DNA of 64,000 nt, from assembly GCF_029227855.1 (NCBI RefSeq), contig NZ_CP074356.1; one strand, 5' to 3'. Under the pieces are notes generated by a model. That model did no database searches. It had not been told where the DNA came from and saw nothing but the letters and a program-made list of their open reading frames with translations. How positions within the stretch are numbered: the stretch's first letter is position 1; every line of letters begins with the position of its first letter. This stretch comes from Escherichia coli. GTDB taxonomy: Bacteria > Pseudomonadota > Gammaproteobacteria > Enterobacterales > Enterobacteriaceae. A program made the translations under genes and the position numbers. This document shows, one piece after another, positions 11,459 through 43,215 of the stretch.

Positions 11459-11558
11459 CCGTTGAATAATCAACCGGATTAATTCTCCGGTAAATAACGA
11501 AAAAACAAAATTGGCCGCTTCGGTCAGGGCCAACTATTGCCTGAAAAAGGGTAACGAT

Positions 11559-20006: not shown

Positions 20007-20900
20007 ATGACGAATTTAAAAGCAGTTATTCCTGTAGCGGGTCTTGGGATGCATATGTTGCCTGCCACTAAGGCGATTCCCAAAGAGATGCTACCCATCG
20101 TCGACAAGCCAATGATTCAGTACATTGTTGACGAGATTGTGGCTGCAGGGATCAAAGAAATCCTCCTGGTAACTCACGCGTCCAAGAACGCGGTCGAAAA
20201 CCACTTCGACACCTCTTATGAATTAGAATCTCTCCTTGAGCAGCGCGTGAAGCGTCAACTGCTTGCGGAAGTGCAGTCCATCTGTCCTCCGGGCGTGACC
20301 ATTATGAACGTGCGTCAGGGCGAACCTTTAGGTTTAGGCCACTCCATTTTATGTGCACGACCTGCTATTGGTGACAACCCATTTGTCGTGGTGCTGCCAG
20401 ACGTTGTGATCGACGACGCGAGTGCCGACCCGCTGCGTTACAACCTTGCTGCCATGATTGCGCGCTTCAACGAAACGGGCCGCAGCCAGGTGCTGGCAAA
20501 ACGTATGCCGGGTGACCTCTCTGAATACTCTGTCATCCAGACCAAAGAGCCGCTGGACCGTGAAGGTAAGGTCAGCCGCATTGTTGAATTTATCGAAAAA
20601 CCAGATCAGCCGCAGACGCTGGACTCAGACATCATGGCCGTTGGCCGCTATGTGCTTTCTGCCGATATTTGGCCGGAGCTAGAACGCACTCAGCCTGGTG
20701 CATGGGGACGTATCCAACTGACAGATGCTATTGCCGAACTGGCGAAAAAACAGTCCGTTGAAGCCATGCTGATGACCGGCGACAGTTACGACTGCGGTAA
20801 AAAAATGGGTTATATGCAAGCGTTCGTGAAGTATGGACTACGCAACCTGAAAGAAGGGGCGAAGTTCCGTAAAGGGATTGAGAAGCTGTTAAGCGAATAA
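20007..20900 (+). CDS. galF: UTP-glucose-1-phosphate uridylyltransferase regulatory subunit GalF
   Basis: 297 aa from [30 protein letters not shown]; matches recalled GalF. Confidence 0.95.
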
Positions 20901-21157: not shown

Positions 21158-21196
21158 CAGTACTCTGGTAGCTGTAAAGCCAGGGGCGGTAGCGTG
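21158..21196 (+). promoter_or_regulatory. JUMPStart element with ops (RfaH-dependent antitermination) upstream of the O-antigen cluster
   Basis: cagtactctggtagctgtaaagccaggggcggtagcgtg contains the ops core GGCGGTAGCGTG at 21185..21196. Confidence 0.85.
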
Positions 21197-21336
21197 TCTA
21201 GTTCAATCCGAGTAAATTAAAAATAATAGTTTTGGAAAAATTGTCTTTATAATGTTAACAAAGCAAGAGTAGGTAATACATATCGTTTTGACATGTATTG
21301 CACTTAAAGAAAACATATCAATTAAATTATCATACT

Positions 21337-22362
21337 ATGCTTATTTACAATACAATATTTGTCTTTTTATCATTTCTTGCACTTTTAGATTTAAGTCATA
21401 AAAAAAATTTGTTATTTTTTTTATTTCCTTGTTTTATATTACTACTGTTAACTGCTATTCGTGGTAATGGAGGAGATGATTTTTATGTGTATGAAAAATA
21501 TTTTAACGCTCTTCCTAATGAAATTTTTAACTATGGATATGGTTATTATAGTTTAAATATGTTTGTTAAAAATTTTGGAGAGTATCCTTTTTTTATTATC
21601 ATTTCATCAATAATATGCATAACTCTTCAGGCAATTTTTATTTATCGTGAGACTGAAAAACCAACTCTGGTTTTGTTTTTATTTTATTCAACTAGCTTTT
21701 TATGGTTGGATTTTATTTTAATTAGGCAGTCAATTTCCGTTGGTTTTTTTATTTTGGCAATATCATTTTTCAAAAATAATAAAAAAATTTTTGCCTGTCT
21801 GTTTTTGATTCTATCTTCATTATTTCATGAGACCGCTATTTTTGCTGGAGTAGTTTTTTATATTTTATACAGAGCCGAGAAGGCAGGTTTTCTTTTTACA
21901 ATTGGCTCGGTATTAATTATTGCACCATTTTTATCTGATATAATCACTATCATAAATGATATGACGATAAAAAATAATAATATAACTCTCTATCTGGAGC
22001 AGCGTACCTTACCAAGCATTGCAAATGTAATTGAGTTAACAATAGCATTTGTTGCATTTTATATAATTAATAAAAATTCCGTGTTTAGAGAGAGTAATGA
22101 GTATAAAATATATAAAAGTATACTATATTCTTCACTATGCATACTATTATTGTCTTATACAATCCCATCATTGGCTAGATTCCTAGAATTTTTTCGTTTT
22201 TTTTACTTCATTTTAGTAGTTAGAATGCTAATGCAATTTAATGTGAGAAGTAGATATCTTTTTTTTGTAATTATACTAGCGTACTGTTTTATGAGACTTA
22301 ATAGCTTCATAAATCAATTTGATTCTGGTTTTGATTATATTTATAATGGAAAAATACTGTGA
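21337..22362 (+). CDS. wzy: Putative O-antigen polymerase Wzy (EpsG-like polytopic membrane protein)
   Basis: Very hydrophobic AT-rich ORF; N-terminal RGNGGDDFYVYEKYF resembles the EpsG/Wzy family; ATG at 21337 chosen over the TTG at 21298. Confidence 0.55.
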   Translation: MLIYNTIFVFLSFLALLDLSHKKNLLFFLFPCFILLLLTAIRGNGGDDFYVYEKYFNALPNEIFNYGYGYYSLNMFVKNFGEYPFFIIISSIICITLQAIFIYRETEKPTLVLFLFYSTSFLWLDFILIRQSISVGFFILAISFFKNNKKIFACLFLILSSLFHETAIFAGVVFYILYRAEKAGFLFTIGSVLIIAPFLSDIITIINDMTIKNNNITLYLEQRTLPSIANVIELTIAFVAFYIINKNSVFRESNEYKIYKSILYSSLCILLLSYTIPSLARFLEFFRFFYFILVVRMLMQFNVRSRYLFFVIILAYCFMRLNSFINQFDSGFDYIYNGKIL

Positions 22363-23228
22363 CTATATTATTTTCTGTTATTACTCCTACCTATAATAGG
22401 GCAGATGAGTTAAGCTCATTGTTCAAAAGTCTTAATAATCAAGAGGGTATCGAATTCGAATGGGTGATAATTGATGATGGTTCTGAAGATCATACACAAC
22501 AACAAGTTAATGACTTCAAAAAACATAATAAAAACATCACAGATATAAAATATTTTTATCAAGAGAATAAAGGTAAAAATTCTGCTGTAATTAGAGGGAT
22601 TCAGAATGCTTCCGGCGATTATATTGTGGTGATTGATAGCGATGATTATTTATTGGATGATGCTTTAATAAGAGTAAAAAATATATTAGATGAAGAGAGT
22701 GTTAATGGCGATGATAAAATAATTGGCATTTCAGGTGTTAAAGTTAAAAGTGATTTCACACCTGTAAGTTATATTAGCAACTCTTCGGCATTGCGAATGA
22801 GTCATTATGAGTGGTTTTATAAGTTTCAGCGGTTAGGTGATCGGATTGACTTTTATAAAGCCCGAGTGCTTAAAGAGAAAATATTTAATGCATTTCCAAA
22901 GGAAAAGTTTATTACAGAAGACGCATATTGGTTGGACCTCGTTGGGGAAAAAATTTTCATAAATGAACCGTTATTAGTAATAAAATATTTAGAGGGAGGG
23001 CTTAGTTCAAGTTACTCATTACTCCTGCGAAACAGTCCTTTTGGAACATCATATTATTATTATATTCTATTAATTAATGCTGATAATTTTAAAACAAAAC
23101 TTAAAGCATCATTATTGATGATGTACTATATATTTGTTACCATATTAAAAAATAGTAATATAGTAATTGGGTTATTGTCACTCATGTTATTTCCAATCTT
23201 ATGTATAATAAAATTCTTTCGAAGCTAA
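22359..23228 (+). CDS. Glycosyltransferase family 2 (O-antigen)
   Basis: 289 aa; SVITPTYNRADEL and DSDD motifs typical of GT2; GTG start overlapping the wzy stop. Confidence 0.75.
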   Translation: MTILFSVITPTYNRADELSSLFKSLNNQEGIEFEWVIIDDGSEDHTQQQVNDFKKHNKNITDIKYFYQENKGKNSAVIRGIQNASGDYIVVIDSDDYLLDDALIRVKNILDEESVNGDDKIIGISGVKVKSDFTPVSYISNSSALRMSHYEWFYKFQRLGDRIDFYKARVLKEKIFNAFPKEKFITEDAYWLDLVGEKIFINEPLLVIKYLEGGLSSSYSLLLRNSPFGTSYYYYILLINADNFKTKLKASLLMMYYIFVTILKNSNIVIGLLSLMLFPILCIIKFFRS

Positions 23229-24406
23229 GAAACACTATTCTTCCTTGTTTCACTCTAGGAACGTCGACGATTTTTTTCTTTGCGATAGGTTTCTTCTTTG
23301 GTATAAATGAAAAATCTGATTTTATATTATTTACGATTACTTTACTTTCAACCATTGGAACTATTCTTCAAATTTCTTGGTATGGATTGTTACCTCGTTT
23401 GAGTTCGAGTTCAAGCTTAAAATTTTTAGGTTATATTATTTCTAATGGTTTTATCTACTGTTTGATCATAAATACCCTACCATTTGTGATTTTAACTCTG
23501 AACTTTACAAACTTTTTTTTTGCAGGGTGTCTCTACTCTTTATTTTTCCAACTGCATCAGTATCTTAAGAATGTTTTTGTTTATCTTGGGCGGCTTAAAG
23601 CATTTTATATTTTTGATGCCATCGGCTATGCCATATGTGTTATAAGTATTACTGTGTTCCAAAAATATCTATTACATTCAAACCCTCAGGATTTATTTGT
23701 TCTGCTTTCGTTATGTTGGCTTTTAATAGTAATTGGTGAGGTCGTACATCTTAAACTATATATTAATTATGACATATCTGTAAAGCCTGTTTATGTATGT
23801 ATTATTCCAACATGGAAAACAAGGATTGCAAACAGTGGTTTTATTGTGAAAGATCTTTTAACTGCGTATGCGCTTAATATACTTGCGCCGGTAGGCGGTT
23901 TAACTATATATTCATACGCAAGTAAGATTTCAACAGCTGTTTTTCAATTATTCTCTCAATATAAAGTAAATGCTTGGGTGGGCAGCATAAGAAAAAAAAG
24001 GTTAAGTGAAGTAGAATACGGTGATATAAAAAAAGTGTCATTATCTTCTTCAATTGATTTTTGTATTTTTCAGATCGTTGCATGGCTTTGTATCTTACCT
24101 ATTATATTATATAATGGCACAAATATAAATATTGAATGGTATGTATTAAGTATTATTACTGGTGGATTACTATACTTGATACAATCAATGGAACAGCCTT
24201 ATGCTAGATTTATTTATATGTCACGACATTTTACCGATATTGCCATCGCAGATGGAATAAATTTTATTATTTATATGGTTTTCTTTTCATATGGATTGTT
24301 AATGTTAAATGTATATTATCTATTTTTAGGTATTATATTAGCTCAATTATGTTCACTAGTTACTTATTCTTTATTTTGCAAGAGGTTGTTTAGGAATGAT
24401 ACCTAA
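23201..24406 (+). CDS. wzx: Putative O-antigen flippase Wzx (polytopic membrane protein)
   Basis: 401 aa hydrophobic ORF with many predicted TM segments; position within O-antigen cluster; the Wzx/Wzy assignment between the two membrane proteins is inference. Confidence 0.5.
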   Translation: MYNKILSKLRNTILPCFTLGTSTIFFFAIGFFFGINEKSDFILFTITLLSTIGTILQISWYGLLPRLSSSSSLKFLGYIISNGFIYCLIINTLPFVILTLNFTNFFFAGCLYSLFFQLHQYLKNVFVYLGRLKAFYIFDAIGYAICVISITVFQKYLLHSNPQDLFVLLSLCWLLIVIGEVVHLKLYINYDISVKPVYVCIIPTWKTRIANSGFIVKDLLTAYALNILAPVGGLTIYSYASKISTAVFQLFSQYKVNAWVGSIRKKRLSEVEYGDIKKVSLSSSIDFCIFQIVAWLCILPIILYNGTNINIEWYVLSIITGGLLYLIQSMEQPYARFIYMSRHFTDIAIADGINFIIYMVFFSYGLLMLNVYYLFLGIILAQLCSLVTYSLFCKRLFRNDT

Positions 24407-25052
24407 AATAATACATTACTGTTGGTTCGGGGGCGGGGATAAACCTGCTTTAGTTAAAAAATGTATGGGGACATGGGAAAAAGTCTTGCCTGGTTGGGAT
24501 ATTATTGAATGGAACGAAGATAATTCGCCAGTATCAGTTCCTTATGTAAAAAATGCGTTAGAAGATAAACGATATGCATTTGCTGCTGATTATGTAAGAT
24601 TCTATGCGCTAAAAACCATGGGAGGAGTTTATCTTGATACTGATATGGAATTGATCAAAGATATTTCTCCGCTTTTGAATAATAAATTCTTTACAGCGAA
24701 AGAATCAGAGGAGCTTATTAATGCAGCAATAATGGGGAGTGAAAAAGATGGGAGATTTGTCAATTTAGTAATCCAAGAATTACAATTGCGCACAGGACAT
24801 ACTTACGAATCTATACCAAAAATACTTACTGATATATTTAATACAGGAAATGGATTTAAAGATGAAACAACCATTTATGATAAGGAATATTTTTATCCTT
24901 ATAATCCCTTTGATAATAAACGAAATGAAGTTAAACAACTTTTCTATTGTGATATAACTCCTCATACTTATGCCATTCATCACTGGCAACAAAGTTGGCA
25001 CTATACATTTCTTGAACGGGTTATTAACAGAATAAGGATGCTTATAAAGTGA
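24396..25052 (+). CDS. Glycosyltransferase, GT32-like sugar-binding family (DXD motif)
   Basis: 218 aa; IIHYCWFGG N-terminus and YLDTDME motif. Confidence 0.7.
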   Translation: MIPKIIHYCWFGGGDKPALVKKCMGTWEKVLPGWDIIEWNEDNSPVSVPYVKNALEDKRYAFAADYVRFYALKTMGGVYLDTDMELIKDISPLLNNKFFTAKESEELINAAIMGSEKDGRFVNLVIQELQLRTGHTYESIPKILTDIFNTGNGFKDETTIYDKEYFYPYNPFDNKRNEVKQLFYCDITPHTYAIHHWQQSWHYTFLERVINRIRMLIK

Positions 25053-25819
25053 GTGGAAATAAATTAATAAGCATAATTATGGCATCAAATAAAATAGATG
25101 AGTTTCTACCTCTGGCAATAAACTCAATTCTTGAACAAACATATCAAAATATCGAAGTGATTTTTGTTGCTAATGGTGATAAAGCTCACTGTATTAGTTT
25201 GTATATAAAAAATTTTTTTAAAGATGAGCGAATCAAAATTTATGAAACACCAATAGGCCAACTATCACATGCGCTTAACCTCGCTATTTCTAACGCATCG
25301 GGTGATTATATTGCCCGCATGGATGCTGATGACATTAGTTTACCTGAGCGATTAACTAAACAGTTGGAATATTTAAGGTCACATAATTTAGATATGGTAG
25401 GTTCGGATATAATTCACATAGATACAAATGGAGAAGTTATTGGGATTAAACATTATCCCAAAGGGTTAAATAAAATTAACAAACAATTGTATTTTAGGAA
25501 TACTTTTTCGCATAGCACTATACTAATCAAAAAAAAAATACTCATTTCAGCGAGAGGCTACAATGCTGGATTTAATTCAGAGGACTATGATCTCTGGTTA
25601 AGATTAAGACGGAAGAATATCAAATGGGATAATATGGAGGAATGCCTCTTAAAATATCGTATACATAGTGCATCTACACAAAGGAAGAGATTGGGTTACG
25701 CCGAAGTCGCGGGTTATTCTCTACGTGAATTTTTATTACGTTTCTCATTTATTGGTATTTTTTCTGTTTTAATTCATATTGTTAAAGTTTATATTAAATC
25801 ATCTTCTCATGAAGAATGA
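25049..25819 (+). CDS. Glycosyltransferase family 2 (O-antigen)
   Basis: 256 aa; GT2-like N-terminus and DADD motif; GTG start overlapping the upstream stop. Confidence 0.7.
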   Translation: MSGNKLISIIMASNKIDEFLPLAINSILEQTYQNIEVIFVANGDKAHCISLYIKNFFKDERIKIYETPIGQLSHALNLAISNASGDYIARMDADDISLPERLTKQLEYLRSHNLDMVGSDIIHIDTNGEVIGIKHYPKGLNKINKQLYFRNTFSHSTILIKKKILISARGYNAGFNSEDYDLWLRLRRKNIKWDNMEECLLKYRIHSASTQRKRLGYAEVAGYSLREFLLRFSFIGIFSVLIHIVKVYIKSSSHEE

Positions 25820-26010
25820 TTTATATTTTAGGATAATTAACTATTTAAATTAGAATCATTTGAGCAAACTTAGGTAACTCTATATAATACACAGCATTGC
25901 AAATGAGTAACATATTGGAATAGCCATTCAATGGTAATATTACAAATTGCTTTAATAATAATGGATCATTTAGCTATGGTGCAATATTTTCTTCTTGCGG
26001 AATTTTACCC

Positions 26011-27129
26011 ATGAAAATACTTCTAATAGGAAACCTCTCTGATACTATTGTATTATTCAGAGAGAAGTTAATAAGAGAGTTGATTAAAAAAAATATCACG
26101 GTTTATACATTAACGATGGATTCTAATCAAGAAAACTTCAACATCATTGCCAGCTACGGGGCCAAACCTGATTCATACTCTTTTTCTCGTTCAGGTACAA
26201 ATCCTTTTTCTGATATTTGGGATACATACAAATTAAATAAAAAAATAAAAAAAATAAAACCTGACGTTGTTCTTTCTTTTTTTCCAAAACCTGTTATTTA
26301 TGGTTCTTTAGCTGCTAAAATAGCAGGGGTGAAAAAAATATTTAGTCTCTTGGAAGGACTTGGTTTTTGCTATACGAATAATTCTAGTCCAATTAGTCTC
26401 AAAAGGAAGATATTAAAATGTATACAAACAATGCTATACAGAATTAGCTTGCCATTATGTAATAAAGTTTTTTTCTTAAACAAGGATGATTTTAATGATC
26501 TCATTATTGATAATAAAATAACCATAAAGAATTATGAAATAATTGGTGGAATTGGTGTTAATTTAGAAGAGTACAGTTATAAGCAACCAAAGATTGATAA
26601 AATACATTTTGGGATGGTTTCGCGATTACTAGTCGAGAAAGGTATTCGCGAATTTGTTTTGGCCGCGAGCCAGGTGAAAAAAAAATTTCCTGAGGTCGAA
26701 TTTAGTATTGCTGGCGCAATTGATGATAATCCTGGTGGTATAACCGAAGATGAGATAAAAAAATGGGAATCAGAGGGGGTTGTCAAATTTTTAGGTCAAG
26801 TTTCTAATGTTAAAAGTTATTTATCTAATATCTCTGTTTTCGTTTTGCCATCTTACCGAGAAGGCGTACCAAGAAGTACTCAAGAAGCGATGGCTATTGG
26901 GCTTCCAATAATTACAACTAATGTTCCTGGTTGTCGTGATACAATTATCAATATGGTAAATGGAATCATGATCCCACCATTTGATATTCAGTCTCTAGCG
27001 GACGCAATGGTATTTTTTATACAAAACCCTCAGAGTATAACAATAATGGGTAGAGAAAGTAGAATAATTGCAGAGAAAAAGTTTAATGAAATAGAAGCCG
27101 CGAATAAATTACTTAAATTAATAATCTAA
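26011..27129 (+). CDS. Glycosyltransferase family 4 (GT-B fold, O-antigen)
   Basis: 372 aa; C-terminal EGVPRSTQEAMAIGLPII resembles the GT4 EX7E region. Confidence 0.75.
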   Translation: MKILLIGNLSDTIVLFREKLIRELIKKNITVYTLTMDSNQENFNIIASYGAKPDSYSFSRSGTNPFSDIWDTYKLNKKIKKIKPDVVLSFFPKPVIYGSLAAKIAGVKKIFSLLEGLGFCYTNNSSPISLKRKILKCIQTMLYRISLPLCNKVFFLNKDDFNDLIIDNKITIKNYEIIGGIGVNLEEYSYKQPKIDKIHFGMVSRLLVEKGIREFVLAASQVKKKFPEVEFSIAGAIDDNPGGITEDEIKKWESEGVVKFLGQVSNVKSYLSNISVFVLPSYREGVPRSTQEAMAIGLPIITTNVPGCRDTIINMVNGIMIPPFDIQSLADAMVFFIQNPQSITIMGRESRIIAEKKFNEIEAANKLLKLII

Positions 27130-27159
27130 TATATAGATTAACATCTACCGGAGTGTTTT

Positions 27160-28179
27160 ATGGCTATTCTTGTTACTGGCGGAGTTGGTTATATCGCTTC
27201 GCACACTATTATAACTTTACTAGAAAAAGGTGAAGAAGTTATAATACTTGATAATTTATCAAATTCATTCTACGAATCTTTGCATAAAGTTAAAAAAATT
27301 ACCGGGTATGATAGTCGATTTTATAGAGGTGATATACTTGACAAAGAGCTCTTACGCAAAATATTCAAAGAAAACACTATTTCTGACGTAATTCATTTTG
27401 CAGGCTATAAATCTGTAAAAGAATCCATTTCTCACCCATTGAAATACTATCAAAATAACGTTTCTGGTACATTGTCATTAATAGATGCGATGGGGGAGGC
27501 TTGTGTAAAAAGTTTGATTTTTAGCTCATCAGCTACAGTATATGGTGAACCAGAAAGAATACCTTTAGATGAAAATTGCAGAATTGGAGGTACAACGAAT
27601 CCATACGGCACGTCCAAGTTATTCGTAGAAAAATTCCTTATTGATTATTCACATGCATTCCCTGATTTTAGAACTACCATCTTAAGATATTTCAACCCTG
27701 TCGGTGCTCATCCATCTGGTGAAATAGGGGAAGATCCCAATGGTATACCTAACAACTTAATGCCATATATATGTCAAGTTGCTATAGGGAAGCAACAACA
27801 CCTCACTATCTTTGGTAGCGATTATCCAACAAAAGATGGTACAGGTGTTCGTGATTATATCCATGTCATGGATCTTGCTGAAGGGCATGTTGCAGCGTTA
27901 GAACATCGAAATGAAGGAGCAAATTGCAAGATCTATAATCTCGGGACGGGCACAGGATACTCAGTACTGGAACTTGTTGATGCATTTCAAAGAGTTACTG
28001 CACGTAAAGTTCCATATGTATTCAGTAAACGACGACCTGGTGATATTGCTGAGTGTTGGTCTGATCCTTCTAAGGCTTATAGGGAACTTGGATGGAAAGC
28101 GAAGCGTGGGTTGGAAGAAATGGTTCGAGATGCCTGGAATTGGCAACAAAAGAATCCGAACGGTTATATAAAAGCATGA
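27160..28179 (+). CDS. gne: UDP-hexose 4-epimerase of the GalE/Gne family (likely UDP-GlcNAc/UDP-Glc 4-epimerase)
   Basis: 339 aa; Rossmann GGVGYIASH, catalytic YGTSK motif; located immediately upstream of gnd. Confidence 0.85.
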   Translation: MAILVTGGVGYIASHTIITLLEKGEEVIILDNLSNSFYESLHKVKKITGYDSRFYRGDILDKELLRKIFKENTISDVIHFAGYKSVKESISHPLKYYQNNVSGTLSLIDAMGEACVKSLIFSSSATVYGEPERIPLDENCRIGGTTNPYGTSKLFVEKFLIDYSHAFPDFRTTILRYFNPVGAHPSGEIGEDPNGIPNNLMPYICQVAIGKQQHLTIFGSDYPTKDGTGVRDYIHVMDLAEGHVAALEHRNEGANCKIYNLGTGTGYSVLELVDAFQRVTARKVPYVFSKRRPGDIAECWSDPSKAYRELGWKAKRGLEEMVRDAWNWQQKNPNGYIKA

Positions 28180-28297
28180 ATGCTCAATGGTATTTTTGTC
28201 AATCTTAAAAATTATCGATTTTATGTATCCTGAGTTAACATAGCATCTACATTGACCTGAGTTATGTTTCGCAGTATCACCCTGACAGGAGTAAACA

Positions 28298-29704
28298 ATG
28301 TCAAAGCAACAGATCGGCGTAGTCGGTATGGCAGTGATGGGGCGCAACCTTGCGCTCAACATCGAAAGCCGTGGTTATACCGTCTCTATTTTCAACCGTT
28401 CCCGTGAGAAGACGGAAGAAGTGATTGCCGAAAATCCAGGCAAGAAACTGGTTCCTTACTATACGGTGAAAGAGTTTGTTGAATCTCTGGAAACGCCTCG
28501 TCGCATCCTGTTAATGGTGAAAGCAGGTGCAGGCACGGATGCTGCTATTGATTCCCTCAAGCCGTACCTCGATAAAGGTGACATCATCATTGATGGTGGT
28601 AACACCTTCTTCCAGGACACCATTCGTCGTAACCGTGAGCTTTCTTCAGAAGGCTTTAACTTCATCGGTACCGGTGTCTCCGGTGGTGAAGAAGGTGCGC
28701 TGAAAGGTCCTTCCATTATGCCTGGTGGGCAGAAAGAAGCCTATGAACTGGTAGCGCCGATCCTGACCAAAATCGCCGCAGTAGCTGAAGACGGAGAGCC
28801 ATGCGTTACCTATATTGGTGCCGATGGTGCAGGTCACTATGTGAAGATGGTTCACAACGGTATTGAATACGGTGATATGCAACTGATTGCTGAAGCCTAT
28901 TCTCTCCTGAAAGGCGGCCTGAATCTCTCTAACGAAGAACTGGCACAGACCTTTACCGAGTGGAATAACGGTGAACTGAGTAGCTATCTGATCGACATCA
29001 CCAAAGATATCTTCACCAAAAAAGATGAAGACGGTAACTACCTGGTTGATGTGATCCTGGATGAAGCAGCAAACAAAGGTACGGGCAAATGGACCAGCCA
29101 GAGCGCGCTGGATCTCGGCGAACCACTGTCTCTGATTACCGAGTCTGTGTTTGCACGTTATATCTCTTCTCTGAAAGATCAGCGCGTTGCCGCATCTAAA
29201 GTTCTTTCTGGTCCGCAAGCGCAGCCGGCAGGCGACAAAGCTGAGTTCATTGAAAAAGTTCGCCGTGCGCTGTATCTGGGCAAAATCGTTTCTTACGCTC
29301 AGGGCTTTTCTCAGCTACGCGCCGCGTCTGAAGAGTACAATTGGGATCTGAACTACGGCGAAATCGCGAAGATTTTCCGTGCTGGTTGCATCATCCGTGC
29401 GCAGTTCCTGCAGAAAATCACCGATGCATATTCCGAAAACCCGCAGATCGCTAACCTGCTGCTGGCTCCGTACTTCAAGCAAATTGCCGATGACTACCAG
29501 CAGGCGCTGCGTGATGTCGTTGCTTATGCGGTACAGAACGGTATCCCGGTTCCGACCTTCGCCGCTGCGGTTGCCTATTATGACAGCTACCGTGCTGCTG
29601 TTCTGCCTGCGAATCTGATCCAGGCTCAGCGTGACTATTTTGGTGCGCATACTTATAAGCGCATTGATAAAGAAGGTGTGTTCCATACTGAATGGCTGGA
29701 TTAA
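28298..29704 (+). CDS. gnd: 6-phosphogluconate dehydrogenase, decarboxylating
   Basis: 468 aa; [28 protein letters not shown]-terminus; matches recalled Gnd. Confidence 0.97.
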
Positions 29705-29760: not shown

Positions 29761-30470
29761 TGCACAGAAAACCCCCAGCTAGGCTGGGGGTTCCGGAAAG
29801 CTTTCAGCTTTGAGCCAGTTATTAAAACCCCTTTTGATTTGTTAAAACACTTTGCGGTCTGGCAACTGCAAGTGTCAAACAAGAAATCAAAAGGGGGTCC
29901 CAATGGGGAACGAAAAGAGCTTAGCGCACACCCGATGGAACTGTAAATATCACATAGTTTTTGCGCCAAAATACCGAAGACAGGTGTTCTACAGAGAGAA
30001 GCGTAGAGCAATAGGCAGTATTTTGAGAAAGCTGTGTGAGTGGAAAAGCGTACGGATTCTGGAAGCTGAATGCTGTGCAGATCATATCCATATGCTTGTG
30101 GAGATCCCGCCCAAAATGAGCGTATCCGGCTTTATGGGATATCTGAAAGGGAAAAGCAGTCTGATGCTTTACGAGCAGTTTGGTGATTTGAAATTCAAAT
30201 ACAGGAACAGGGAGTTCTGGTGCAGAGGGTACTACGTCGATACGGTGGGTAAGAACACGGCGAAGATACAGGATTACATAAAGCACCAGCTTGAAGAGGA
30301 TAAAATGGGAGAGCAGTTATCGATTCCCTATCCGGGCAGCCCGTTTACGGGCCGTAAGTAACGAAGTTGGATGCAAATGTCAGATCGTGTGCGCCTGTTA
30401 GGGCGCGGCTGGTAAGAGAGCCTTATAGGCGCATTTGAAAAACCTCCGGCTATGCCGGAGGATATTTATT
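29761..30470 (+). mobile_element. IS200-type insertion sequence (IS200/IS605 family), boundaries approximate
   Basis: About 0.7 kb with a single Y1 HUH transposase ORF; left-end hairpin acccccagctaggctggggg and right-end hairpin cctccggctatgccggagg; no terminal inverted repeats, as expected for IS200. Confidence 0.75.
29903..30361 (+). CDS. tnpA: IS200 transposase TnpA (Y1 HUH)
   Basis: 152 aa from MGNEKSLAHTRWNCKYHIVFAPKYRRQVFY; HIHMLVEIPP (HUH) motif; essentially the recalled Salmonella IS200 TnpA. Confidence 0.92.
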   Translation: MGNEKSLAHTRWNCKYHIVFAPKYRRQVFYREKRRAIGSILRKLCEWKSVRILEAECCADHIHMLVEIPPKMSVSGFMGYLKGKSSLMLYEQFGDLKFKYRNREFWCRGYYVDTVGKNTAKIQDYIKHQLEEDKMGEQLSIPYPGSPFTGRK

Positions 30471-31975: not shown

Positions 31976-32956
31976 ATGAGAGTAGAAAATAATAATGTTT
32001 CTGGGCAAAACCATGACCCGGAACAGATTGATTTGATTGATTTACTAGTGCAGTTGTGGCGTGGCAAGATGACAATCATCATTTCCGTCATTGTGGCTAT
32101 TGCCCTGGCTATTGGATATTTGGCAGTAGCGAAGGAGAAATGGACGTCAACAGCAATTATCACTCAGCCCGATGTGGGGCAAATTGCTGGCTATAACAAT
32201 GCCATGAATGTTATCTATGGTCAGGCTGCACCGAAAGTATCGGATTTGCAGGAGACGTTAATTGGTCGCTTCAGTTCTGCCTTCTCTGCATTAGCAGAAA
32301 CGCTGGATAATCAGGAAGAACCAGAAAAACTTACCATCGAACCTTCTGTTAAGAACCAGCAATTACCATTGACTGTTTCTTATGTTGGGCAAACTGCAGA
32401 GGGCGCACAAATGAAGTTGGCCCAATACATTCAGCAAGTTGACGATAAAGTGAATCAAGAGTTAGAAAAGGATCTCAAGGACAACATTGCTCTGGGACGG
32501 AAAAACTTGCAGGACTCTTTAAGAACGCAGGAAGTGGTTGCGCAGGAGCAGAAAGATCTGCGTATCCGTCAGATTCAGGAAGCGTTGCAGTATGCGAATC
32601 AGGCGCAGGTGACAAAACCGCAGATTCAACAGACTGGCGAAGATATCACACAAGATACGTTGTTCCTTTTGGGGAGCGAAGCGCTGGAGTCGATGATTAA
32701 GCATGAGGCGACTCGTCCGTTGGTGTTCTCACCAAACTACTATCAGACACGTCAAAACCTGCTGGATATCGAAAGCTTAAAAGTTGATGATCTTGATATT
32801 CATGCTTACCGTTATGTGATGAAACCGACGTTACCTATTCGTCGCGATAGCCCGAAAAAGGCAATTACCTTGATTCTGGCAGTGCTGCTGGGTGGCATGG
32901 TTGGCGCGGGGATTGTGCTGGGGCGTAACGCTCTGCGTAATTACAACGCGAAGTAA
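31976..32956 (+). CDS. wzzB: O-antigen chain-length determinant WzzB
   Basis: 326 aa from MRVENNNVSGQNHDPEQIDLIDLL; the ORF track start at 31940 is an upstream extension. Confidence 0.93.
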   Translation: MRVENNNVSGQNHDPEQIDLIDLLVQLWRGKMTIIISVIVAIALAIGYLAVAKEKWTSTAIITQPDVGQIAGYNNAMNVIYGQAAPKVSDLQETLIGRFSSAFSALAETLDNQEEPEKLTIEPSVKNQQLPLTVSYVGQTAEGAQMKLAQYIQQVDDKVNQELEKDLKDNIALGRKNLQDSLRTQEVVAQEQKDLRIRQIQEALQYANQAQVTKPQIQQTGEDITQDTLFLLGSEALESMIKHEATRPLVFSPNYYQTRQNLLDIESLKVDDLDIHAYRYVMKPTLPIRRDSPKKAITLILAVLLGGMVGAGIVLGRNALRNYNAK

Positions 32957-40086: not shown

Positions 40087-40134
40087 TTTCTTATTCCTCT
40101 TTAAACCTGTCTGAACCGTTATCAACAGCGCAAT

Positions 40135-40170
40135 AAAAAAGCCCCCGGAAGGTGATCTTCCGGGGGCTTT
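40135..40170 (-). terminator. his operon attenuator (leader terminator)
   Basis: On the minus-strand transcript: agcccccggaag-aucacc-uuccgggggcu stem followed by a U run; lies between hisL and hisG. Confidence 0.85.
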
Positions 40171-40231
40171 CTCATGCGTTCATGCACCACTGGAAGATCT
40201 GAATGTCTTCCAGCACACATCGCCTGAAAGA

Positions 40232-40282
40232 CTAGTCAGGATGATGGTGATGATGGTGGTGTTTAAATTGAACGCGTGTCAT
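40232..40282 (-). CDS. hisL: his operon leader peptide
   Basis: Reverse complement encodes MTRVQFKHHHHHHHPD-stop, with seven consecutive His codons. Confidence 0.95.
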   Translation of the reverse strand: MTRVQFKHHHHHHHPD

Positions 40283-42949: not shown

Positions 42950-43029
42950 AGAAAAATTATTATGACAAGCCTCTCATTCTCTTGTCATTTCCCCCCCATT
43001 TAGGCACAATGCGCCGCTGTCAAAAAATG

Positions 43030-43068
43030 ACTAAAAACCGACGTTTCATCAGCGTCGGTTATTTTTTG
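43030..43068 (+). terminator. Rho-independent terminator downstream of yeeY
   Basis: aaccgacgtttcatcagcgtcggtt hairpin followed by attttttg. Confidence 0.7.
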
Positions 43069-43215
43069 CTTCAAACCAATCATTCATACCAAGAGGCCGG
43101 GCTTCGTACCGGATAGATATTTACTAAAAATCGACAGTTGTTGTCGCTGAGGAATCCAAAAAAATGGGGCAATTTTTTGCTTACGCGACGGTTATCACCG
43201 TAAAGGAGAATGACC

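Follow-up and report, generated by a model that had tools for sequence, protein, structure and literature searches.

A Wzx/Wzy-dependent O-antigen gene cluster, very probably of serogroup O23, at the galF–gnd site of an Escherichia coli genome

O23 is a classical serogroup of Escherichia coli. The structure of its polysaccharide was reportedly published by Bartelt in 1993, and its gene cluster is said to be among those sequenced in the 2015 survey of all serogroups by Iguchi. In the leader of O-antigen operons, the JUMPstart/ops element serves as an RfaH-dependent antitermination signal, and wecA of E. coli is situated in the ECA locus. The O-antigen clusters of all 184 serogroups have been sequenced, and wzx and wzy are serogroup-specific, with the nearest pairs sharing less than 70% DNA identity. 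According to a review, O23 carries gne within the cluster and has an O unit with one GlcNAc and one GalNAc, of which GlcNAc is the first sugar, and a PCR specific for the O23 wzx has been published, giving an amplicon of 403 bp.

The window, that is, the whole 64,000-nucleotide stretch of E. coli DNA analyzed here, contains at positions 21337–28179 seven co-directional ORFs on the + strand, mostly overlapping and all open in the ORF listing. Neighboring genes overlap by 4–28 nt at four of the six junctions and are separated by 30 and 191 nt at the remaining two. The block begins and ends exactly where wzy starts and galE stops in the RefSeq annotation of an almost identical genome. Its GC content is 31.0% (25.5–37.6% gene by gene), as against 49% for the whole window and 50–52% for galF and gnd, the conserved left and right flanks of the O-antigen locus, which lie at 20007–20900 and 28298–29704 (both +) and whose products are 100% identical to those annotated in RefSeq at the almost identical locus. 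Further downstream is wzzB (31976–32956, +), whose product regulates O-antigen chain length together with Wzy; the gene was located by shifting the same annotation by a coordinate offset of 15199 and coincides with a matching ORF. Ahead of the block, a JUMPstart element is found at 21158–21196 (+; Rfam RF01707, 60 bits versus a gathering score of 35), within which an exact ops motif, GGCGGTAG, occupies 21185–21192. All seven ORFs and their catalytic motifs are intact, bearing out the initial annotation, which had described a seven-gene, AT-rich block between galF and gnd. Since every product can be placed firmly in a family or fold, the seven-gene block, as judged from homology and structure prediction, is far beyond chance expectation. 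Over the region, promoter-like and terminator-like sites were no more numerous than in shuffled sequence, and a conserved element sought in the 191-bp GT2–GT4 gap across E. coli, Citrobacter, and Salmonella was not found, the gap itself not being conserved.

The block is almost certainly an intact Wzx/Wzy-dependent O-antigen cluster of E. coli serogroup O23 (Og23) at the usual galF–gnd site. Over 7051 bp, it is 99.9–100% identical to 18 of 5426 complete E. coli genomes, all 18 of which carry wzx and wzy annotated in RefSeq as O23 family; wzx and wzy thus surpass the DNA identity of at least about 95–97% that marks O23 membership, and the Wzy and Wzx proteins are each 100% identical. A comparison with NZ_AP045174.1 shows only two mismatches in 19 kb and an identical gene order. 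The published O23 wzx primers, when run in silico, give a product of exactly 403 bp (23580–23982), the forward primer matching exactly at 23580–23599 and the site of the reverse primer (23963–23982) having one extra T, a one-base indel relative to the printed 19-mer. In addition, gne lies inside the cluster, fitting an O unit with GlcNAc and GalNAc. The basis of the assignment is the RefSeq "O23 family" naming together with one independent primer pair, rather than a direct alignment with the type strain; among the NCBIfam HMMs there is no O23-specific wzx or wzy model, and the "O23 family" names are not reproducible by HMM.

The initial annotation had left the serogroup unassigned and had regarded the block as the part of the window likeliest to differ from well-studied references. 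The only support for a novel or unassigned O serogroup, apart from a Wzx without a Pfam or NCBIfam match, which is unusual on its face, is that the initial annotation did not place the cluster in a serogroup. Such a serogroup is nevertheless highly improbable in view of the near-identity to 18 complete genomes annotated O23 family and the in silico O23 PCR with its exact amplicon size, all the more so with type-specific wzx and wzy and 184 of 184 serogroup clusters already sequenced. By the initial annotation's own reasoning, a whole-block match to a characterized cluster would make the locus known rather than novel, and O23 provides just such a match; both of its expectations were mistaken. 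As matched here, the O23 cluster is already catalogued, and thus an ordinary known feature, not an unassigned one. The O-genotype of the source strain would be O23 with an intact cluster, information of use in typing and epidemiology; the suggestion of an undescribed O-antigen locus in the window is removed, and there is little significance beyond correct annotation.

Wzx/Wzy-dependent synthesis requires a polymerase of the EpsG or O-antigen polymerase family and a flippase of the MOP superfamily. The first gene, wzy (21337–22362, +), encodes a polytopic membrane protein of 341 aa, the putative O23 O-antigen polymerase, with about nine hydrophobic segments in a crude hydropathy scan; it matches Pfam EpsG (PF14897) over residues 26–322 with E=7e-36, thus falling within the required families, and is 100% identical to WP_001578578.1, an "O23 family O-antigen polymerase". 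The third gene, wzx (23201–24406, +), encodes a protein of 401 aa that is 100% identical to the RefSeq "O23 family" Wzx WP_001389120.1 and has no match in Pfam (Polysacc_synt models included), in NCBIfam, or in a profile search of PDB sequences. Because the Pfam and PDB profile searches gave nothing, fold comparison was used instead. The AF2 model (pLDDT 80.7, pTM 0.76) has 12 long helices, and in a Foldseek search of the PDB its best matches are WzxE (9G9N, TM 0.65) and MurJ (TM 0.70), followed by matches that are all MOP transporters, while in AFDB50 the Wzx-type matches exceed 2000, at TM 0.7–0.82. The 12-helix MOP fold shared with WzxE, the ECA lipid III flippase, and with MurJ, the lipid II flippase (5T77/6NC6), is recovered at TM 0.65–0.70 with a Foldseek probability of 1.00, although sequence identity to these proteins is just 13–16%. 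The MOP-superfamily membership of the putative O23 O-unit flippase is therefore seen in the fold, not in a Pfam Polysacc_synt sequence profile. Databases name this protein merely by self-similarity, and the fold now supports its identity as a flippase independently.

It might be argued that the two calls are swapped or that gene 3 encodes no flippase, given that its product lacks a sequence-profile match and shows just eight strong hydrophobic segments in the crude hydropathy scan. The Kyte–Doolittle scan, however, undercounts the helices of this protein (8 versus 12 in the model) and was not relied on. Either reading is scarcely credible: the model of the gene 3 product finds no matches other than MOP flippases and transporters, WzxE and MurJ heading the list, the Wzx-like AFDB models that it matches exceed 2000, and gene 1 belongs to the Wzy-type EpsG family. 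By profile and predicted fold, wzx and wzy are not swapped, so that the corresponding calls of the initial annotation have withstood independent tests.

Between and behind these genes are four glycosyltransferase genes, all on the + strand. The first, at 22359–23228, starts with GTG and encodes a GT2 enzyme of 289 aa (Pfam PF00535, E=2e-27) with a DSD motif at residue 93 and, in the hydropathy scan, a C-terminal hydrophobic, TM-like segment at 268–286; the enzyme is presumed to be inverting, forming a beta linkage. The gene at 24396–25052 specifies a GT32-type enzyme of 218 aa (Pfam PF04488, E=4e-12, and PF05704, E=3e-10; DTD motif at residue 81), named "glycosyltransferase family 32 protein" in RefSeq, which would be retaining and form an alpha linkage. 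It is followed by a second GT2 gene at 25049–25819, likewise with a GTG start, the 256-aa product of which (Pfam PF00535, E=5e-23; DAD motif at residue 92) is probably inverting, and by a GT4 gene at 26011–27129, the 372-aa product of which (Pfam PF00534, E=1e-30, and PF13477, E=7e-10; EX7E motif at residues 284–292) is probably retaining.

The last gene, gne (27160–28179, +), annotated as galE, encodes a UDP-hexose/UDP-N-acetylhexosamine 4-epimerase (TIGR01179, 461 bits versus a cut-off of 262), the predicted supplier of UDP-GalNAc. In established GalE biochemistry, Cys at position 299 broadens the specificity to UDP-GlcNAc/UDP-GalNAc. The product of gne shares 55% identity with GalE of E. 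coli K-12, is within one residue of it in length, and keeps the SDR Gly-rich motif as well as Ser124, Tyr149, and Lys153; the difference is at residue 299, which is Cys in Gne and Tyr in GalE. As is characteristic of group 2 UDP-hexose 4-epimerases, the GxxGxxG NAD-binding motif is present as GGVGYIA from residue 7 along with the Ser-Tyr-Lys triad, and a small residue, Cys, replaces the bulky Tyr299. The best match among PDB sequences is 1LRK, one of the structures of the GalE Y299C mutant (1LRK/1LRL), with which Gne has Cys299 in common. From the biochemistry of GalE, Cys299 is expected to give the cluster epimerase its Gne function. The initial annotation had named the seven genes wzy, GT2, wzx, GT32-like, GT2, GT4, and gne, and Pfam, TIGR01179, and fold comparison agree with all seven names; it was also correct that, except for the GalE/Gne epimerase, no dedicated sugar pathway is present.

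From these assignments a scheme of O-unit assembly can be proposed, in which the sequence evidence is direct and the biochemistry is drawn from the protein families. Transcription would begin upstream of the JUMPstart/ops element at 21158–21196, which would recruit RfaH and thereby allow read-through of the long AT-rich operon. WecA, encoded beyond the window, would load GlcNAc-1-P onto undecaprenyl phosphate, after which the four transferases of the cluster would attach four further sugars taken from housekeeping UDP-sugars; beta linkages are expected of the GT2 pair, as inverting enzymes, and alpha linkages of the GT32 and GT4 enzymes, as retaining ones. UDP-GalNAc would be provided by the cluster Gne, in which Cys at the position of GalE Tyr299 would open the active site to N-acetylated substrates. 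The MOP-fold Wzx would then carry the pentasaccharide on its lipid across to the periplasmic side, where the EpsG-family Wzy would polymerize the O unit to a length controlled by WzzB (31976–32956), and WaaL, the gene for which lies elsewhere, would ligate the polymer to lipid A-core. The housekeeping UDP-sugars and the pentasaccharide envisaged by the initial annotation both fit the four transferases plus WecA and the GlcNAc and GalNAc given in the review; the pentasaccharide unit, however, like the alpha and beta assignments, is something that we infer.

The same gene set recurs in other genomes. The Og23 loci of strains JNEC-KY178 (NZ_AP045174.1), 13TMH22 (NZ_CP019256.1), and 2-1 (NZ_CP097198.1) contain the same seven genes in the same order and with the same sequence, without any difference of substance, and their flanks, galF, gnd, IS200C, ugd, and wzzB, are also those of the window. 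A seemingly novel cluster variant in pig ETEC genomes, which share only the 3′ 70%, was rejected as such and is explained by IS1-mediated truncations with a wzx pseudogene. Beyond E. coli, the galF–gnd loci of Citrobacter freundii and Salmonella enterica subsp. houtenae have the gene order of the window (EpsG-type wzy, GT2, a profile-less wzx, GT32, GT2, and GT4), with protein lengths equal or nearly equal, a similarly low GC content of 29–30%, and ops motifs upstream, but the proteins are just 58–78% identical to those of the window. The two loci also differ at the 3′ end: in C. freundii, gne is internally deleted, with only its 5′ 71 nt and 3′ 312 nt remaining, whereas in S. enterica subsp. 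houtenae an additional Acyl_transf_3 gene is located between gne and gnd.

Such variation bears on whether an O23 genotype might go with a non-canonical antigen, either in a rough strain or through alteration of the O unit by outside genes, such as glucosylation by prophage gtr genes or O-acetylation. Other groups of E. coli have documented serogroup differences that arise via modification genes outside the O-AGC, decay of O23-type clusters is seen in certain lineages, the IS1-truncated clusters of pig ETEC being an example, and the Salmonella relative has its additional acyltransferase gene. In the window, however, the seven genes are intact with their catalytic motifs, JUMPstart and wzzB are in place, and neither the ORF list nor the RefSeq annotation contains an acyltransferase or gtr gene inside the cluster, so that a departure from the canonical O23 antigen seems unlikely.

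Conservation of the colinear O23-type gene order in Escherichia, Citrobacter, and Salmonella, with 58–78% identity, implies that this O-antigen form would be old. The O23 Wzx family is very small: clustering at 90% identity leaves 11 clusters in a set of 5.8 billion proteins, and a set of 1.84 billion contains 17 representatives. It may be speculated, albeit with considerable doubt, that the O23-type Wzx constitutes a very small branch of the MOP flippases, nearly confined to Enterobacterales and belonging to an old colinear cluster type, and that it might have an unusual mode of O-unit recognition or serve as a useful outlier for identifying the sequence features that a Wzx requires. That so small a Wzx family escapes sequence profiles is the sole mild curiosity of the O23 cluster.

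The segment at 21337-28179, between galF and gnd, holds seven open reading frames by ORF calling in the window, all on the + strand; neighbouring frames overlap by 4-28 nt at four of the six junctions and are separated by gaps of 30 and 191 nt at the other two. The block has a GC content of 31.0% (25.5-37.6% per gene), lower than that of the window as a whole (49%) or of galF and gnd on either side (50-52%), which confirms the seven-gene, AT-rich block described in the initial annotation. The limits proposed there are exactly those at which wzy starts and galE ends in the annotation of a nearly identical RefSeq genome. The cluster is real, intact and of a wholly conventional Wzx/Wzy O-antigen type.

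The identity of the cluster was examined by megablast with positions 21200-28250 (7051 bp) against 5426 complete E. coli genomes. The entire block is present in 18 of these at 99.9-100% identity, always on the chromosome, and all 18 copies are annotated with "wzy: O23 family O-antigen polymerase" and "wzx: O23 family O-antigen flippase". In one of them, NZ_AP045174.1 (strain JNEC-KY178), the order is wcaM, galF, wzy, GT2, wzx, GT32, GT, GT4, galE, gndA, IS200C tnpA, ugd, wzzB and hisIE, and only 2 positions differ from the window over 19,051 bases. As an identity check that does not depend on RefSeq naming, an in-silico PCR was performed with O23-specific wzx primers, whose 403-bp product has been validated with three O23 strains in multiplex PCR (PMC7403468). 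At 23580-23599 the window is a perfect match to the forward primer; the site of the reverse primer, at 23963-23982, carries one extra T relative to the printed 19-mer, and the amplicon is exactly 403 bp. The reverse primer as printed in the supplement, CCCACCCAAGCATTACTTT (19 nt), is one T short of its target CCCACCCAAGCATTTACTTT at 23963-23982 (PMC7403468); because the amplicon length agrees exactly, the T was probably lost through a typographical slip or during extraction. Clusters have been sequenced for all 184 serogroups, and wzx and wzy are unique to each cluster type, with the closest pairs sharing <70% DNA identity (Iguchi et al., PMC4379981). O23 itself, for which a structure paper of 1993 is cited, is listed among those O antigens that contain a single GlcNAc and a single GalNAc, its initial sugar being taken as GlcNAc because the cluster carries gne (Liu et al., PMC7685785). 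Taken together, the genome matches, the PCR and this literature therefore identify the cluster as that of E. coli O23, an already characterised serogroup. The initial annotation had regarded the serogroup as unassigned and the locus as potentially novel, unless the whole block should match a characterised cluster at high identity; O23 proved to be such a match, and the claim of novelty is refuted.

At the level of single genes, family matches and motifs (fold in the case of gene 3) show all seven earlier calls to be accurate. Gene 1, wzy (21337-22362), matches the Wzy-type Pfam family EpsG over residues 26-322 (E = 7e-36). The GT2 genes 2 (22359-23228) and 5 (25049-25819) match Glycos_transf_2 (E = 2e-27 and 5e-23) and carry DSD and DAD motifs, respectively. 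Gene 4, GT32 (24396-25052), contains the DXD sugar-binding domain PF04488 together with PF05704 and a DTD motif at residue 81, and gene 6, GT4 (26011-27129), combines PF00534 and PF13477 with an EX7E motif at residues 284-292.

Gene 3, wzx (23201-24406), gave no match to Pfam even at E ≤ 10, none to NCBIfam, and no meaningful one when PDB sequences were searched with a profile. Its family is very small, with 11 clusters (90% identity) in a set of 5.8 billion proteins. None of these has a Pfam domain, and the named ones belong to Escherichia, Citrobacter, Salmonella and Morganella. When 1.84 billion proteins were searched exhaustively with a HMMER profile, 17 representatives emerged (E ≤ 0.001). 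Since the "flippase" label might merely have been propagated, the structure was predicted from the 11-sequence alignment, yielding a model with 12 long helices (mean pLDDT 80.7, pTM 0.76). Foldseek against the PDB placed the WzxE lipid III flippase first (9G9N, TM 0.65) and MurJ next (TM up to 0.70), followed to about rank 49 by further MOP and MATE transporters. AFDB50 returned >2000 matches, and those listed, with TM mostly 0.7-0.82, are either uncharacterised or named as Wzx-type oligosaccharide flippases or polysaccharide-export proteins. By its modelled MOP fold, gene 3 is thus a Wzx, and the wzx and wzy assignments are borne out with no swap. The sequence-orphan character of the O23 Wzx family is the sole mildly unusual trait, one that the comparison of folds settles.

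Gene 7, gne (27160-28179), scores 461 bits against the GalE equivalog (cut-off 262) and is 55% identical to K-12 GalE. Ser124, Tyr149 and Lys153 of the K-12 enzyme are likewise present, whereas the gating Tyr299 is replaced by Cys, as it is in the top PDB sequence match, GalE chain 1LRK. Cys in place of Tyr299 opens the GalE site to UDP-GlcNAc and UDP-GalNAc, and the residue in gene 7 fits a Gne that supplies UDP-GalNAc.

From gene families, we infer a pathway in which WecA, encoded outside the window, would initiate the unit by placing GlcNAc-P onto undecaprenyl phosphate, after which the four cluster transferases would extend it by four sugars drawn from UDP-Glc, UDP-Gal and UDP-GalNAc; by this count, the O unit may be a pentasaccharide. 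In the CAZy scheme GT2 enzymes are inverting, and both of those encoded here would be expected to form beta linkages; GT4 and GT32 enzymes are retaining and would be expected to form alpha linkages. Wzx would then flip the unit and Wzy polymerise it, with WzzB setting chain length and WaaL ligating the polymer to lipid A-core.

The clusters that hold Wzx relatives in Citrobacter freundii (L006, L007) and Salmonella enterica subsp. houtenae (L008, L009) are colinear with that of the window and likewise lie between galF and gnd (6137-12446 in L006 and 6137-15545 in L008), with GC of 29-30% and protein lengths equal or nearly equal to those of the window. The cluster proteins share 65-78% (Citrobacter) and 58-72% (Salmonella) identity with the window, as opposed to 93-96% for galF and gnd. 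In the C. freundii cluster, an internal deletion has left just 71 nt at the 5' end of gne and 312 nt at its 3' end. The houtenae cluster carries, between gne and gnd, an additional Acyl_transf_3 gene that points to an O-acetylated variant. Four pig ETEC genomes retain remnants of an O23-type cluster at about 98% identity; in both inspected (NZ_CP122859.1 and NZ_CP122758.1), wzy and GT2 have been lost to an IS1B element, which has also truncated wzx. Both strains are Belgian and presumably O-rough or non-typable, and in one of them the GT4 gene and wzzB are disrupted as well.

Upstream, a JUMPstart element (21158-21196; Rfam, 60 bits, gathering score 35) sits 141 nt before wzy and includes the ops motif GGCGGTAG at 21185-21192; wzzB (31976-32956) lies downstream. 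Generic promoter-like and terminator-like matches occurred at least as often in shuffled sequence. The operon has just one sizeable intergenic gap, the 191-bp GT2-GT4 spacer (25820-26010), which contains a sigma-70-like match, TTGAGC-17-TATAAT, at 25860-25888, and shows no conservation in the Citrobacter or Salmonella versions. Between gnd and ugd is an IS200C element (29770-30470) with tnpA at about 29903-30361, a 5' leader matching Rfam STnc490 (29770-29893, 144.6 bits) and a strong hairpin at 30443-30461; the O23 strain JNEC-KY178 has the same insertion. Other Rfam matches in the window are an algC RNA motif at 11505-11554, in the colanic acid region, the histidine operon leader (40133-40256, - strand) and the sRNA STnc240 (42995-43069).
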